The position numbers and the translations under genes were made by a program. The notes beneath the pieces are model-generated. The model saw only the letters and a program-made list of their open reading frames with translations, was not told the origin of the DNA and made no database searches. 64,000 nt of DNA from Octopus vulgaris (lineage: Eukaryota), in assembly GCA_951406725.2 (NCBI GenBank), contig OX597817.1:133982001-134046000 (forward strand). Reading direction: 5' to 3'. This document shows positions 2,275-47,559 of this stretch, one piece after another. Within the stretch, counting starts at the first letter, position 1. Each line of letters begins with the position of its first letter.

Positions 2275-2595
2275 GTGTTTATATTTACATTTGACGGAAT
2301 TTTTGTCTCATTTTGTTTGTTGCTTTTAACCACCACCCTATATGCCCATGGACGATTATGAAGTGAATTTTAGAGCTTATAAATCTAATATTTTCCTATC
2401 CTTCCTTTATACCGGTTCCCATATACTACCCATATCTGCGCTCGGTCTGCTTAGGAGGTTTTCAAACCTAGCATATGTGCCGCCTCTTTTAGTTTTCCTA
2501 TTTTCCAATTGTGTTCTCTGTCTATTATTTTAACTTCATCCCACAGGGATGTAAATAATGTACATAACTCCTCATCTCTCAAATATAGAACTGTG
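2275..2595. repeat. Decayed remnant of the fold-back tRNA/HHR element
   Basis: Contains the left-arm piece atttacatttgacgga..ttttgtttgttg, the centre-like ttaaccacc..tatatgcccatgg, and the right terminus tgtaaataatgtacataa..aatatagaactgt, matching 47082-47538 and 12677-12938. Confidence 0.65.
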
Positions 2596-2611
2596 TTATA
2601 TTTTTGTAAAG

Positions 2612-4674: not shown

Positions 4675-4988
4675 TTAATCCTTTCTACTATAGGTACAAG
4701 GCCTGAAATTCTTGGGGAGGAGACTAGTCGATTACATCGACCCCAGTGTTTCACTAGTGCTTAGTTTATCGACCCCTGAAAGGATGAAAGGCAAAGTCGA
4801 CCTCTGCGGAATTTGAACTCAGAACGTATCGGCAGACAAAATACCTATTTCTTTACTACCCACAAAGGGCTAAACACAGAGGGGACAAACAAGGACAGAC
4901 AAACGGATTAAGTCGATTATATCGACCCCAGTGCGTAACCGCTAAGCATTTCGCCCGGCGTGCTAACGGTTCTGCCAGCTCGCCGCTC
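4675..4988 (-). mobile_element. SINE family 1, with a second copy nested inside
   Basis: Body gtcgattacatcgacccc..ggaatttgaactcagaacgta is interrupted at ~4845 by a second 3' tail (ctatttctttactacccac..), then resumes at cgctaagcatttcgcccggcg. Confidence 0.9.
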
Positions 4989-4989
4989 T

Positions 4990-5630
4990 CATGCTGGGAA
5001 ATTAATGAGAACTATCGTCAAACAATTTCAGTTGTTGGAGTGGACTGTCAGGGCTGTGGTACATGAAGACATTCGATACAAGAAAAAACGTTGGATCAGT
5101 ACCGAGCAGTTACTTACGAAGGTTACAAAACCTTCACAATTATGGCAGGTTCTGGTTCTTCTTTCATGAGAAAAAACTTCGACCAAGACTAAAAGTCTAG
5201 CAGGAAGAGTAATAAATGATTATTTAAAAATTCTTCTGATTTCCCCAGGGTGATGCACTCTGAATTTCAGCGACTGAAATGGTTTTAAGGTTGGTAACAA
5301 CTGTCGTGTCATGTCACCTCACATCTTTCTGTAGGGTCTTAGAATTAATTCTGCCAGATATATTGAGGTGCTGGAGGCAGTTGTTAAACCCTAGATGGCT
5401 GAAGTACGTATTTCACCAAAATTCAGCACATTCTCACAAAGCCCACGTGACCCAAAAATGAATGTCAAACAATCTTCCTGGTCATGTAGCGCTCCACTTG
5501 TGGCTTCCAAACACCAGATCGCAATCCCATGGACTACAACGTTTAGAGTGTTGTTGAAAGGATACTAATCGATAGCCTCCCATTACATGGCTTCACTGAA
5601 GGCTGACTTTACAATTGTGATCCGAATTGC
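4990..5630 (+). mobile_element. Decayed Tc1/maT-like transposase fragment
   Basis: Fragments TVRAVVHEDIRYK, EKNFDQD, YVFHQNSAHSHKA (QQDSAPSH) and WLPN.PDRNPMDY (WPPNSPDLNPLDY). Related to 38881-39605. Confidence 0.8.
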
Positions 5631-10455: not shown

Positions 10456-10467
10456 CCTTGAGTATAC

Positions 10468-11355
10468 CTATTTCTTTACTACCCACAAGGGGCTAAACAC
10501 AGAAAAGACAAACAAGGACAGACAAACGGACTAAGTCGATTATATCGACCCCATTGTGTAACTGGTACTTATTTAATCGACCCCGAAAGTATGAAAGGCA
10601 AAGTCGTCCTCGGTGGAATTTGAACTCAGAACGTAGCGGCAGACGAAATACCGCTAAGCATTTCGCCGGTGTGCTAACGTTTCTGCCAGCTCGCTGCCTT
10701 GAGTTTACCAACACTGTACTATTGAAAACAACGCGTGATTTGGACCAGCCCATCATGCGTTAAATACTAATAGGGTTGGTTTACTTATTTCTTTATTGCC
10801 CACAAGGGGTTAAACATAGAGTGGACAAACAAGGACAGACAAAGGGATTAAGTCGATTACATCGACCCCAGTGCGTAACTAGTACTTAATTTATCGACTC
10901 CGTAAGGATGGAAGGTAAAGTCGACCTTGGCGGAATTTGAACTCAGAACGTAAATACCTATTTATTTACTACCCACAAGGGGCTAAATACAGAGAGGACA
11001 AACAAGGACAGACAAACGGATTAAGTCGATTATATCGACCGCAGTGTGTAACTGGTGCTTATTTAATCGACCCCGAAAGGATGAAAGGCAAAGTCGACCT
11101 TGGCGGAATTTGAACGTAAAGACAGACGAAATATCTATTTCTTTACTACCCACAAGGGGCTAAACAACGAGATGACAAACAGATTAAGTCGATTATATCG
11201 ACCGCAGTGTGTAACTGGTACTTATTTAATCGACCCTGAAAGGATGAAAGGCATAGTCGACCTCGGCGGAATTTGAACTCAGAACGTAGCGGCAGGCGAA
11301 ATACTGCTAAGCATTTCGCCCGGCGTGCTAACGTTTGTGCCAGCTCGCCGCCTTA
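10468..11355 (-). mobile_element. Tandem/nested array of four SINE family 1 units
   Basis: Repeated tatttctttactacccacaaggggctaaac..gtcgattatatcgacc..ggaatttgaac units start near 10468, 10785, 10958 and 11135. Confidence 0.95.
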
Positions 11356-11775: not shown

Positions 11776-12676
11776 GCTAGGGTCTTTGGTTGAATATTCT
11801 GTACTTGGGAAACTTATCTTTAGTATCTCATACTTTAAAAAAATATTTTAAATGTCGTATCATCTGTATAGATATTGACAGTGAGGTTCGTAATGAGAAG
11901 AACATATGAACAATAAATTTTTGTTTTAAAATGAAACGTTGGAAAACAGAAAGCGTCAGATGTGAAGCGAAACCGCACAGGCGCCGCCGGCAAAGCTAGA
12001 TATTTAGAGTTTTAAGGAAAATGATCATCCATTTTTCTTTTCATTCTATATTAAATGTTTTTTTTTTTTTTTCTACAAATCGTCAGTTTAGCAAAACTAT
12101 AGATTCGATAAAACAAAAACCTTGCTACTAAGTACATTCAGGATTTGTCAGTCTAGAATTCAGTGTGTTTATTACACGTGATGAATTAGTTTTTGTTATT
12201 TACTGTTGACTAACACGAATTATATAACTTCGTAAAGGGTTTTGCTTTTTGAACTGTTATCAAAAGAGGTTTTGTTTTTTTTAATATTTGGGGGAACTGA
12301 ATTTAGTCTTGGGCATACCCGGCTGGATTTCAACACCGAACGTAATAAGTAATTTAAAGAGCCTTGCACTCTGCTCTTCCAACCACATTAACACTAAAAT
12401 ACATTACACTGCTAACAACTACATGGACCTGGAATAGATTTTTCTCCTTCTGTTAGTGTCTTGTTATTAACACGGTCGTGGCTGTTAGGATCTTCACCTC
12501 ATCAGTTACACTGCAACCCTTAATGAACCAAAGAATGCATAAGCATTCAATATTCATTTTTTTCCCTCTTCGAAAATACTGGAATTTTTTGTTATTTTGA
12601 TCTTTTGCTTGTTTCAGTCATTAGACTACGGCCATGCTGGAGCACCGCCTTGAATTTTAGTCGAATAAATAGATCT

Positions 12677-12938
12677 TACAGTTCTATATTACAGTTCTAT
12701 ATGCTCACGGGCATATGACGTAGTGGTTAAGAGCGCGGGCTACTAACCACAAGACTCCAAGTTCGATTCCAAGGCAGCGACCTGAATAATAATAATATTG
12801 AAAAATACCTTAGGAATGAGGACCTCGGTTCGAAATTTTCCCCAAGACACCTGATGAAGGCTGATGGGTATATCAGCCGAAACGCTGTGTTAAAAACAAA
12901 CAAGATGAGGACAAATACCCCTCAAATGTAAATAATGA
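12677..12938 (+). mobile_element. One arm of the fold-back element: tRNA-like head, (AAT)n, hammerhead
   Basis: A-box TGACGTAGTGG (12716-12726), B-box GTTCGATTCC (12761-12770), HHR at 12846-12891. Starts with a duplicated tacagttctatat, the reverse complement of the element's other terminus atatagaactgta (47526-47538). Confidence 0.85.
12846..12891 (+). ncRNA. Type I minimal hammerhead ribozyme (U16.1 mutated in this copy)
   Basis: gacac CTGATGA a ggctga-tgggtata-tcagcc GAAAC GCT gtgtt. The sister copy at 47445 has GAAACGTT, which restores the palindromic stem III. Confidence 0.8.
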
Positions 12939-13204
12939 ATCGACCTTAGTGCTTATTTTTTTAAAGACGGATACTTACTCTATCGGTATCTTTTGCCGAA
13001 ACGTTAAGTTACAGTGATGTAAACACACCAACATTGTTATCAAGCGGTGGTGAAGGACACACACACTTTCTTTCTCTCTCTCAGGGTTGGGCAAAAATAG
13101 GTATTTAGTTGCTTAATATGACAGCTTTTTAATGTTTTTTAGGATAAGAATAAAAAAGATTTGCAATGAACTAAGCATATCTCGAAGATGTTTTAGTCGG
13201 CTTG

Positions 13205-13366: not shown

Positions 13367-14164
13367 TATCCTCGCCTGTATTATGAATATGAAAAGTAAT
13401 TTGAAATTCCAGAACATTTCTTTTCGCATTAATTGATTTTACATAAATATAAGATGTTGGAATATTAAATGTATTTCTGCAAAATACATCTAATATTTCA
13501 GACAACTATAACGGAATAGGTTGTTTTCATTTTTGTTTAAAATACTTATCTTTTTATCTCCAGTCTCAGCTCTGGTGGAGTCAAACCTTAATCAGATTTT
13601 ACCCGGTATTTAAAAATTTTTTTTTATAGAAATATTAACTACACAACGGAATGTTTTGTGTCACAAATGTAGAAAGAATCTATGCAGTCACTTGGTCTGC
13701 TAGAAATAGTAGTCATATTTACATCATGGTGTCTAAACCGGTGGTTCTCAAATTGATAAATACCAGCTTCATCATACAGAAACAATGCTAGAATATGTTT
13801 TGTTCCTCTTTACAGATGGTGTGTATCATACAATTCTTTCTTCTTGGTATTGGACAAGTTTCGAAAGTTTCGAACCCAATTAATTTAAGCCATTTCCATT
13901 AAAATACAATATTGTAAAGAATCTAGTTCAATCTCACCAGTAAGACATTTGCTGAATTTTGCAAGTCTAAGCAAGTATGTGTTGTTGTGGAACATTAAAG
14001 CCCCATCCACTCCGAATAAAGCCTTTCCATGAAAACTAGTTGGTTTTTTTTCAGAGTATATGGAAGCGATTACATATTTTGCAACATAATGAATTAGCCC
14101 TTGAATACTGACAATAGTAATCCTTATAAATTTTGGCACAAGGCTAGCAATTTTAAGGGAGCGT

Positions 14165-14300
14165 TCTGCGTTCAAATTCTGCCGTGGTCCACTTTCCCAT
14201 TCATCCTTTCAGGGTCGATAAAATAAGTACCAGTCGAACACTGGGGTCGACGTAATCGACTTATCCCCTCCCCCAAAATTGCTGGCCTTGTGCAAAATTT
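14165..14300 (+). mobile_element. SINE family 1 fragment
   Basis: Contains gttcaaattctgccg..tcatcctttcagggtcgataaaataagtaccag..ctggggtcgacgtaatcgac. Confidence 0.85.
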
Positions 14301-19334: not shown

Positions 19335-19560
19335 AAGCGCAGAAACGTTAAGCACGACGGGCGAAATGCTTTGCGGTATTTCGTCTGCCGTTACGTTCTG
19401 AGTTCAAATTCCGCCGAGATCGCCTTTGCCTTTCATCCTTTCGGGGTCGATAAATTAAGTAGCAGTTACGCACTGGGGTCGATGTTATCGACTTAATCCC
19501 TTTGTCTGTCCTTGTTTGTCCCCTCTGTGTTTAGCCCCTTGTGGGTAGTAAAGAAATAGA
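19335..19560 (+). mobile_element. SINE family 1, near full length with long tail
   Basis: Reads gcagaaacgtt..gttctgagttcaaattccgccgag..gccccttgtgggtagtaaagaaata. Confidence 0.92.
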
Positions 19561-19574
19561 ATACACGCGCTGGT

Positions 19575-19910
19575 TCTAAGGGTAGAGAGGGATGTGTTGT
19601 CTTCTAGCCAGTTTGCTAAAAGGTGGATGAAAGTGGGGAGAACGGTGCGAGTGAACGGCCTGCCCTAAGCATGCCCTTGTAGTTGGAGAAAGGCACCTGT
19701 CCTCCAAAGTCGGGGTACCCATGGTTTTCTCGAACGTCTCCTTACTATTGAGGATTACACATTGTTTTTCCCCCCCTTGAGTTAATCTTGTTTCCACGCA
19801 GAACCCTCACAACACACACACACACACACACACACACATTCTTTGTTTTGTCCTGTACTGTTCATAATGTCTGTTTTAATGTAAATCCTTTGTTGTAAAT
19901 AAAGAAATCA
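19575..19910 (+). mobile_element. Tx1/L1-like LINE 3' end
   Basis: LRVERDVLSSSQFAKRWMKVGRTVRVNG is homologous to the ORF end of 56637-57420 (IRPEK.CLLHNMYTKRWKSVGSMLCLTG). Ends in aataaagaaat. Confidence 0.65.
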
Positions 19911-19918
19911 TTTTTATT

Positions 19919-20350
19919 AAGGCGACGAGCTGGCAGAAACGTTAGCACGCCGGGTGAGATGCATAGTGGTATTTCACCCATCGCTACGTTTTTAATTCAA
20001 ATTCCGCCGAGGTCGACTTTGCCTTTTTTCTTTTCGGTGGTTGATGTAATCGACTATCCCCCTCCCTTAAAATATCGCGCCCGGCGCCTATAGTGGAAAG
20101 GATTATTATTATTATTATTAAGGCTGCAAGCTGGCAGAATCGTTAGCACACCGGCCAAAATGCTTAACTGCATTTCGTCCGTCTTTACGTTCTGCGTTCA
20201 AATACCGCCAAGGTCGACTTTGCCTTTCAGCCTTTTAGTGGTCGTTTAAATAGGTACCAGTTACGCACTGAGGTCGATGTAATCGTCTTAATCCCTTCCC
20301 CTAAGCTGCCCTTGTGGCAAAAATTTGAAATTATTATTATTATTATTATT
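19919..20350 (+). mobile_element. Two tandem SINE family 1 copies with (ATT)n tails
   Basis: Starts aaggcgacgagctggcagaaacgttagc at 19919 and aaggctgcaagctggcagaatcgttagc at 20120. Confidence 0.9.
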
Positions 20351-41034: not shown

Positions 41035-41422
41035 GTGCTCGACTGATACTTATTTTATCGACCCCAAAAGGATGAAACACAGAATACATGGTCGGAATTT
41101 ATACTGAGAATGTTACAAATTGCAAGAGATTTGGTTTAGTATTTTATCCAGCGCGGTAATGCTTCCGCCAGTTGGTCACTTAAATCACAATAATAATAAT
41201 AATAATAATCCTTTCTATTGGGAGCAGATCGCCTCAAATTTGGGGGAAGAGATCAAGTCGATTACATCGATCCCAGTGCGTAACTGGTACTTAATTTATC
41301 GACCCCGGAAGGATGAAACGCATAGTCAACCCCGGCGGAATTTGAACTCAGAACATGGAGGACAGCATTTCGCCCAGCGTACTAAACGATTCTGCAAGCT
41401 GGTCACCTGAATAATAATAATA

Positions 41423-46592: not shown

Positions 46593-47081
46593 TAATACCA
46601 GGTAACAGACAATAGAAGAAAAAGCCATTTATAAATAACCAAATCAAAACTAATGTAAGTAGAAGAAACACTGCGTATCAGTAGTTCTCAGTTCATTGCT
46701 TATCTAGCAACACTGTCAATAATCTCAATAAAATTAAAATTGAGAGTTAAACATCTCTGCAGATTTGACAATACAGTTTGATTATTAAACTATCATTCTT
46801 AATGAGATATGCGTAAGATTGTGTAACTAAGTCTTTTTGTGAACAATCTCACTCGTCTTGTTTTGTATATTCACTCTGTGACATACCCAAGGACCGATTT
46901 CAACCAAATGATACGTGCACCTTAATACCGTTTTCCTTCACACATGGATATAAATATGGGGTTTTAATACTGATTATTGGTCGTGCGATGCAATAATCTT
47001 TTAAATTGCACTATATGTATATATCTATCAAAAGATTCATTAAACAAGTTATGTCTAATAAAAAAAAACTTATTTAGCTAA

Positions 47082-47225
47082 CATTATTTACATTGTCCTC
47101 ATCTTGTTTGTTGTTAATACAAGGTTTTGGGTGATATACCCTCCAGCCTTCATCAGATGTCTTGGGAAAATTTCGAACCTGGGTTCTCATTCCTAAGGTA
47201 ATTTTCGATGTTGTTGTTGTTATTG

Positions 47226-47270
<45 letters not shown>

Positions 47271-47538
47271 TCACTGCTTAGAATCGAATTCGGAATCTTG
47301 GGATTAGTAGCTTCGATTACAAGCAGTGAGGTGAATAATAATAATAATAATAATAATGATAATAATAATAACATCGAAAAATACCTTAGGAATGAGAACC
47401 CAGGTTCGAAATTTTCCCAAGGAAGGCTGAAGGGTATATCAGCCGAAACGTTGTGTTAACAACAAACAAGATGAGGACAAATGTCGGTCAAATGTGAATA
47501 ATGTACATAATTTCTCATCTCTTAAATATAGAACTGTA
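47082..47538. mobile_element. Fold-back element: two head-to-head tRNA/(AAT)n/HHR arms
   Basis: 47082-47310 is the reverse complement of 47312-47505 and of 12740-12938. Flanked by the 12-bp direct repeat ttatttagctaa (47070-47081, 47539-47550). Confidence 0.9.
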
Positions 47539-47559
47539 TTATTTAGCTAAGTTTTAACA

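Follow-up and report, generated by a model that had tools for sequence, protein, structure and literature searches.

The window, a 64,000-nucleotide stretch of the Octopus vulgaris genome (assembly GCA_951406725.2, contig OX597817.1, positions 133,982,001 to 134,046,000 of the forward strand), carries near 47 kb two arms, 47161-47248 and 47334-47421, that are inverted and 92% complementary. The copy that they form is flanked by a perfect 12-bp direct repeat (47070-47081 and 47539-47550), so the fold-back proposed in an earlier note on this DNA is real. The note had also given each arm of its assembled element a tRNA-like head with A and B boxes; at 47 kb the A box is missing from both arms, and the palindromic centre is absent as well. 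Both hammerhead cores are damaged, the left by an altered GAAA and the right by loss of CUGAUGA. The features of this copy, named after the coding Penelope-like retrotransposon (PLE) described below, are as follows.

47070..47081, no strand: target-site duplication, left 12-bp copy (sequence)
47082..47311, minus: pseudo-LTR arm without tail, truncated within the tRNA-like head (alignment)
47116..47161, minus: damaged minimal hammerhead motif, GAAA and cut triplet altered (sequence, alignment)
47209..47266, minus: (AAT/AAC)n run, from head to coding start (sequence)
47267..47311, minus: 3' part of the tRNA-like head, positions 31-75, B box kept and A box lost
47312..47333, plus: remnant of the second head, starting within the B box; arm-arm junction without palindromic centre
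47334..47372, plus: (AAT)n run (sequence)
47373..47538, plus: pseudo-LTR body with the initial PLE ORF codons, hammerhead remnant and tail
47419-47457, plus: hammerhead remnant within the right body, with a 9-bp deletion on the CUGAUGA side
47504..47538, plus: PLE tail of about 35 bp, at the right end only
47539..47550, no strand: target-site duplication, right 12-bp copy (sequence)

Two further copies lie in the window, and none of the three (at 2.3, 12.7 and 47 kb) has an intact ribozyme. At 12.7 kb, the order that had been suggested for an arm is present, with an A box at 12716, a B box at 12760, an AAT run and a hammerhead-like fold (z -3.5), the core of which, at 12.8 kb, has lost the conserved U preceding the cut site. 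The 2.3-kb locus had been read as part of the same palindrome; its middle portion is instead the end of a coding PLE, as listed here.

12668-12678 and 12938-12948: second copy, flanking 11-bp duplication with 2 mismatches
12677..12702, minus: second copy, doubled 13-bp tail terminus, the sole remainder of the inverted arm
12709..12785, plus: second copy, whole tRNA-like head (A box 12716-12726, B box 12760-12770)
12797..12937, plus: second copy, body without tail; hammerhead fold at 12846-12892
2282..2322, minus: third copy, 3' pseudo-LTR end that lacks the tail and has its ribozyme deleted
2323..2548, minus: third copy, sequence coding for the C-terminal end of the endonuclease, plus the 3' UTR and the beginning of the head, all from the coding PLE (83-87% identity to coding copies)
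2549..2597, plus: third copy, inverted end bearing the tail

The 12.7-kb copy is nested within another dispersed repeat (window 12610-13050), and several other family copies likewise interrupt common SINE-like repeats.

The family is spread across the genome, with at least 3,302 candidates. The 21-base ribozyme-core pattern has 6,300 exact matches in the genome and the palindromic centre has 510, while the reversed controls have 0 in each case. Since 40 arbitrary 10-kb stretches contained 4 elements in total, we infer a copy number of the order of 10^4, with a wide error. Near-identical copies with common flanks (L372/L374/L375 and L264/L435) are probably segmental duplications and were counted once where stated.

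We assembled 45 two-armed elements from loci L002-L125 and the window, a non-random set drawn from best-scoring, centre-selected and arbitrary samples. The tail, comprising the terminal 35-45 bases or so, is on a single side in 42/45 of these copies and on both sides in 0/45; it was scored on neither side in the other 3, two of which show a deleted remnant by eye. The missing left terminus at 47 kb, which had been taken for a lesion, is therefore the rule. Target duplications pass the score in 28/45 copies versus 1/300 shuffled flank pairs; they are 9-16 bp long, with 12-14 bp in 19/28 (microhomology included), and 81% AT. Among 50 loci selected for a perfect centre, both heads are whole in only 4, and centres and internal junctions differ copy by copy. 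A symmetric palindromic element thus does not describe the family. The short copies are inverted pairs or solos, and the head-to-tail arrangement of at least two hammerheads that defines retrozymes was not found among them.

These data also bear on the alternative of a MITE, in which a DNA transposase would mobilize the element by its terminal inverted repeats; we give it a negligible probability. Its arms would be inverted, as they are here, and the terminus has a Tc1/mariner-like start, TA-CAGT. The duplications were inspected for the uniform TA expected of a MITE and are 9-16 bp instead; this, together with the one-sided terminus, led us to exclude it, and the sequence is moreover the end of an RT-coding element. 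Retro-insertion rather than cut-and-paste, as the note had favored, agrees with these duplications, the one-sided tail and the RT-coding parent.

Each arm is the 3' pseudo-LTR of a coding PLE of the same genome, and the fold-back is the shortest head-to-head insertion of this pseudo-LTR. The arm consists of the tRNA-like head, the AAT run, the first 55 or so codons including the hammerhead, and the tail. When an open frame adjoining one centre-selected locus was used as the query, we obtained at least 4,881 genome candidates. In 27 of the 30 best loci, the query locus included, the head and/or body lies about 60 bases past the matched endonuclease-coding end, and in 10 of these 30 an inverted body is also found upstream. 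At the 5' end of the coding unit, the tail continues in frame into the ORF. The pseudo-LTR runs into the ORF at 13 loci (12 independent), forming a partial tandem that overlaps the ORF start, and L448 holds a whole 2.8-kb PLE unit. No diagnostic site divides coding from short copies (54 coding and 140 short heads; 45 coding and 220 short bodies). We identify the arm as the pseudo-LTR because it follows the coding end, its tail is in frame with the ORF and no variant separates the two kinds of copy. The suggested mobilization by PLE machinery is supported.

Translated across the ribozyme, the arm gives a peptide that matches the N-terminus of P0003, an intact relative of 847 aa (15/29, pairwise E 7e-6). 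We dropped two alternatives, an ATG within CUGAUGA and a short intron located in the tail, since another frame reads through the ribozyme and tail into the ORF. A 569-aa open frame contains an RT domain (RVT_1, E 2.7e-6, just under the curated cut-off), and the PLE protein has 2,989 homologues. In Foldseek, the 8 best hits of the predicted P0003 model (pLDDT 87; P0003 is 56% identical) are all telomerase RT, which points to a telomerase-like RT in a single ORF, as for EN+ Penelope-like elements. A GIY-YIG-like motif was seen at the C-terminus by eye, and PF01541 (GIY-YIG) is precomputed in 3 of the 120 homologues listed; the endonuclease label rests on motif, position and homologues, since Pfam called no GIY-YIG in proteins of the family itself. 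The order of the domains and the ribozyme's PAc-like position suggest a place in the Penelope/Poseidon clade.

The hammerhead had been described as a minimal type I motif of the PLE kind, and its features agree with those given in the accessible text of PMC4209133. Like the PLE hammerheads described there, the putative ribozyme has an extra base between 9 and 10.1, a G10.1-C11.1 pair, a palindromic 15.2-16.2 and a helix III without a loop, and we noted no motif difference. Self-cleavage has left no sharp mark on the points of truncation. The core is intact in 67/198 arms and is no better conserved than its surroundings (0.922 versus 0.939), so we detected no selection on the ribozyme after insertion. 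Among 59 truncated arms, there is no 5'-end peak at the cut site that would mark ribozyme cutting, only a broad rise at positions 85-104 (17/59), and the truncation peaks at 17-20 and at 41-44 resemble hot spots of microhomology. Folding of monomer and dimer with ViennaRNA did not yield the catalytic dimer, and the stem-loop predicted in the tail was non-significant (z -1.09). The ribozyme is dispensable for anole PLE insertion in vitro, as described in the accessible part of PMC11167929; in the Octopus fold-backs, it is inherited PLE anatomy and probably needless for their insertion.

We aligned 19 equal-length heads with 10 tRNA genes of the same genome and found z values of 2.7-6.3, with Arg-TCG and Arg-TCT best and Thr/Ala/Cys next. 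The boxes sit at tRNA positions, with the A box at 8 and the B box near 52. The pseudo-LTR thus begins with a tRNA-derived A/B-box head, in agreement with what had been noted. The head is a poor cloverleaf folder; ARAGORN found no tRNA in the window and did not call the head itself, and an Rfam scan of the window called neither hammerhead nor tRNA. Another repeat (L363 and L373, positions 1500-1520) has the first 21 bases of the head and not the remainder. In addition, L182 has seven tRNA calls within 3 kb, six of them Cys and one Ser-ACT-like.

Copy number rises steeply at the head. Exact 18-base counts are 980 in the endonuclease, 1,012 in a UTR stretch that stops 7 bases short of the head and 4,927 in the A-box region, an approximately fivefold rise at the first base of the head, where the last figure is somewhat inflated by mirror heads and stray matches. 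Of the first 30 A-box-region matches, 2 are another repeat, 5 retain the UTR (3 of them near-identical) and 23 start at the head, so that, among 28 heads of the family, 23 have their start 0-7 bases upstream of its first G. A mirror of at least 7 bases is present in 10 of these 23 copies and absent from 13. This step implies that most copies come from a template that begins at the head or from a polymerase that turns there. As in SINEs, the copies have an A/B-box head and start at it, and the arm lacks TTTT in the coding units examined. On the other hand, the SINE hallmark of a head absent from the autonomous partner in a separate lineage is not seen here, since the head lies within the coding PLE and no diagnostic sites were found.

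The last point bears on the distinct non-autonomous element, with its own palindromic master, that the earlier note had envisaged. An independent SINE or retrozyme lineage that borrows the PLE protein would account for the roughly four fifths of heads without upstream PLE sequence. However, its head belongs to the coding element, no site sets the short copies apart, centres and junctions vary, and complete palindromes are few (the 4/50 above). We consider such a lineage improbable.

In coding copies, ATAATTGCCCACGGGCATATG lies just before the head and forms a 5-bp hairpin with an AC loop (TGCCC-AC-GGGCA). The middle two bases of the centre are AC, GT or the CpG-decay product AT in 48/50 loci. 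In 17/25 informative loci, it is the AC-led arm that is intact. In the other 8/25, the centre has the opposite orientation, which speaks against the explanation preferred below; there the intact arm has the mirror (GT) leader, as would be expected if palindromic daughters of an independent lineage were re-transcribed from either head. Across 42 pairs, the two arms of one insertion have 39 minority alleles in common, where shuffling leads one to expect 18.7 and reached at most 30 in 500 rounds. A single template or self-copying would produce such sharing, and later gene conversion might also have contributed.

RNA polymerase III (Pol III) is commonly regarded as a producer of short non-coding RNA, and protein-coding retrotransposons as users of Pol II or Pol I read-through. 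The head likely acts as a Pol III promoter behind thousands of SINE-like short copies. We consider it reasonably probable that the fold-back, as a head-to-head insertion of the coding PLE's pseudo-LTR, derives from a short Pol III RNA, and we hold a Pol III start at the tRNA-derived head to be probable to a similar degree. Pol III would start at the head inside the pseudo-LTR and yield a short RNA. By analogy with the anole PLE in vitro, the RT-endonuclease would then nick AT-rich DNA on both strands, with about 12-13 bp between the nicks, and reverse transcription would start at two internal RNA sites to give a tailed and a tail-less end; in the accessible text of PMC11167929, the anole protein (PAc) cuts and extends both strands, and its two starting points are internal sites of the RNA that delimit the tail. 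A cDNA that reaches the RNA start may snap back on the short hairpin, copy itself for a variable length and join its partner cDNA via homology or microhomology. Together, snap-back and joining would leave a palindromic centre, usually with one arm deleted, and the fold-back would be made anew at each insertion.

Since the step coincides with the hairpin, the same pile-up would be expected if reverse transcription paused or snapped back on a long RNA. The copies could accordingly be ordinary 5'-truncated, inverted PLE copies of a long Pol II or read-through RNA, in which the tRNA-like piece would be the relic of a SINE that was captured, and the hairpin, situated exactly at the step, would stop or turn the RT. 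Junction palindromes and one-sided tails occur in rotifer Penelope (accessible parts of PMC3846280 and PMC8557442), and short and coding copies here have all common variants in common and a similar divergence of 5-6%. Furthermore, only 1 of the 12 independent copies that run from a 5' pseudo-LTR into the ORF enters the head (to position 37) and none covers the whole head or beyond, which is fewer head-reaching copies than the gentle rate of ORF truncation would suggest and counts against the Pol III reading. However, the stem is just 5 bp, and the 13/23 short heads without a mirror copy end there all the same. We regard this long-RNA origin as rather unlikely, although it deserves more weight than an independent lineage.

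A Pol III origin predicts no TTTT, the terminator, on the sense strand, and we devised this test after the head was seen. In natural units, we counted 0 TTTT per 2,618 bases and 1 per 2,681, with about 6 expected by shuffling, and the L448 unit has 2 runs in 2,800 bases. A 1,972-base copy has 3 runs versus 4.3 by shuffling, and one region that contains flank has 4. The column-majority sequence (2,490 columns) has 0 runs of TTTT and 17 of TTT. Open-frame pieces have 6 TTTT versus 23.1 under synonymous shuffling, from 33 overlapping and hence non-independent pieces. TTTT is present in all 10 control families: observed and expected counts in four LINE families are 13/10.4, 190/146.2, 7/7.8 and 2/3.9, and the six other PLE-like families of the genome have 3-12 runs per frame in 20/20 loci. 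In 80 foreign PLE loci, we found 589 TTTT versus 394 expected, with zero in only 2 short loci, and a fit to these loci gives P 0.0002-0.002 for zero TTTT. The scarcity is that of one family and hence of one master sequence. One foreign PLE (L271) has only 1 TTTT in 2.3 kb of coding strand, yet its UTR has T runs, and a preference for TTC was found in control families too. T runs abound in the pseudo-LTRs and UTRs of other PLEs, and a long-RNA origin leaves the scarcity across ORF, UTR and pseudo-LTR unexplained. Separately, L271 has at 2421-2560 a hammerhead-like motif with a stem II that encloses an A run and a non-standard GAAAU.

With Pol III still as the preferred source of the short RNA, we tentatively suggest that the same promoter, where a tandem puts it upstream of the ORF, also makes a full-length, terminator-free RNA. 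It is likewise conceivable, though we would not press it, that an autonomous retrotransposon acquired a Pol III promoter of tRNA origin in its terminal repeat and cleared the Pol III terminators from its 2.7-kb coding strand, one promoter giving both an uncapped coding RNA and a SINE-like RNA. Such an element would be a LINE and a SINE in one and a coding parent for tRNA-bearing Penelope-type repeats. Since a Pol III RNA would be uncapped, its translation would need a separate route. If true, a PLE built on Pol III would offer a natural example of coding RNA transcribed by Pol III and illustrate one way in which a SINE can arise within its host element.

The architecture and the element type are known, and the promoter arrangement is apparently undescribed. 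As far as the accessible parts of PMC11167929, PMC3846280 and PMC8557442 describe them, EN+ PLEs of the Penelope/Poseidon type, whose endonuclease is a C-terminal GIY-YIG, share with the Octopus parent a single RT-endonuclease ORF of about 800 aa, a pseudo-LTR that overlaps the ORF start and a hammerhead in the first codons. They also share an inverted 5'-truncated copy, a tail of 30-40 bp at one end, short duplications in AT-rich DNA and a junction palindrome. The inverted truncated copy, often with the tail at one end, appears in the PLE overview (PMC8557442), and in Adineta vaga Penelope the tail is on one of the inverted pseudo-LTRs, with 8-10-bp duplications and junction palindromes (PMC3846280). 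Unlike these elements, the Octopus PLE has an A/B-box head and AAT run in its pseudo-LTR, an excess of copies at the head and a nearly TTTT-free sense strand; the rotifer pseudo-LTR is described with a putative TATA/Inr promoter (PMC3846280).

Other short repeats resemble the Octopus unit in part, again going by the accessible text of each source. In Schistosoma Sm-alpha/Sj-alpha (PMC6765202), a Pol III-type promoter likewise precedes a hammerhead; these are non-coding, often tandem and have canonical hammerheads active in vitro, whereas the Octopus unit belongs to a coding element as its terminal repeat and inserts head to head. Animal non-LTR retrozymes (PMC7761336; bioRxiv 10.64898/2026.07.22.740005) are also short hammerhead repeats derived from or moved by PLEs, but they form head-to-tail arrays and are said to be promoterless and circle-forming, in contrast to the inverted pairs and solos with a promoter-like head found here. 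Helenus, Ajax and Cassandra (PMC10886601) similarly have a segment derived from a small-RNA gene (tRNA or 5S) in a non-SINE retroelement; they are of the LTR class and non-coding, whereas the Octopus PLE codes for its own protein. Hammerheads are not mentioned in the accessible text of PMC13282606. In searches of the open literature, no paper on a tRNA-derived Pol III promoter in a PLE pseudo-LTR came up; Repbase, Dfam, subscription journals and supplements, the curated library of PMC13282606 in particular, may already list the family as Penelope or SINE.

The thousands of short copies constitute an in vivo record of the PLE cycle, and the one-sided tail, the 12-14-bp stagger and the shared arm alleles make the model of two-site, two-strand priming directly testable. 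For annotation, such copies are readily mislabelled as SINEs or MITEs.

Among the 80 foreign PLEs, a pattern search found tRNA-like boxes downstream in 0, and 2 have candidate boxes 480-560 bases upstream, namely a tRNA-Leu gene (L324 2432-2511) and an A/B-box segment (L277, about 2520). The six further PLE-like families of the Octopus genome (L407-L426) are 24-30% identical to the PLE of the fold-back family; several have long open frames and T-rich 3' ends, they are possibly Naiad-type, and no standard hammerhead pattern was found within 600 bases downstream. The window itself also contains a separate abundant repeat of about 160-200 bp (10464-11355, 4841-5002, 14163-14293, 19357-20035 and 41186-41354), which includes a local tandem of 4 copies.
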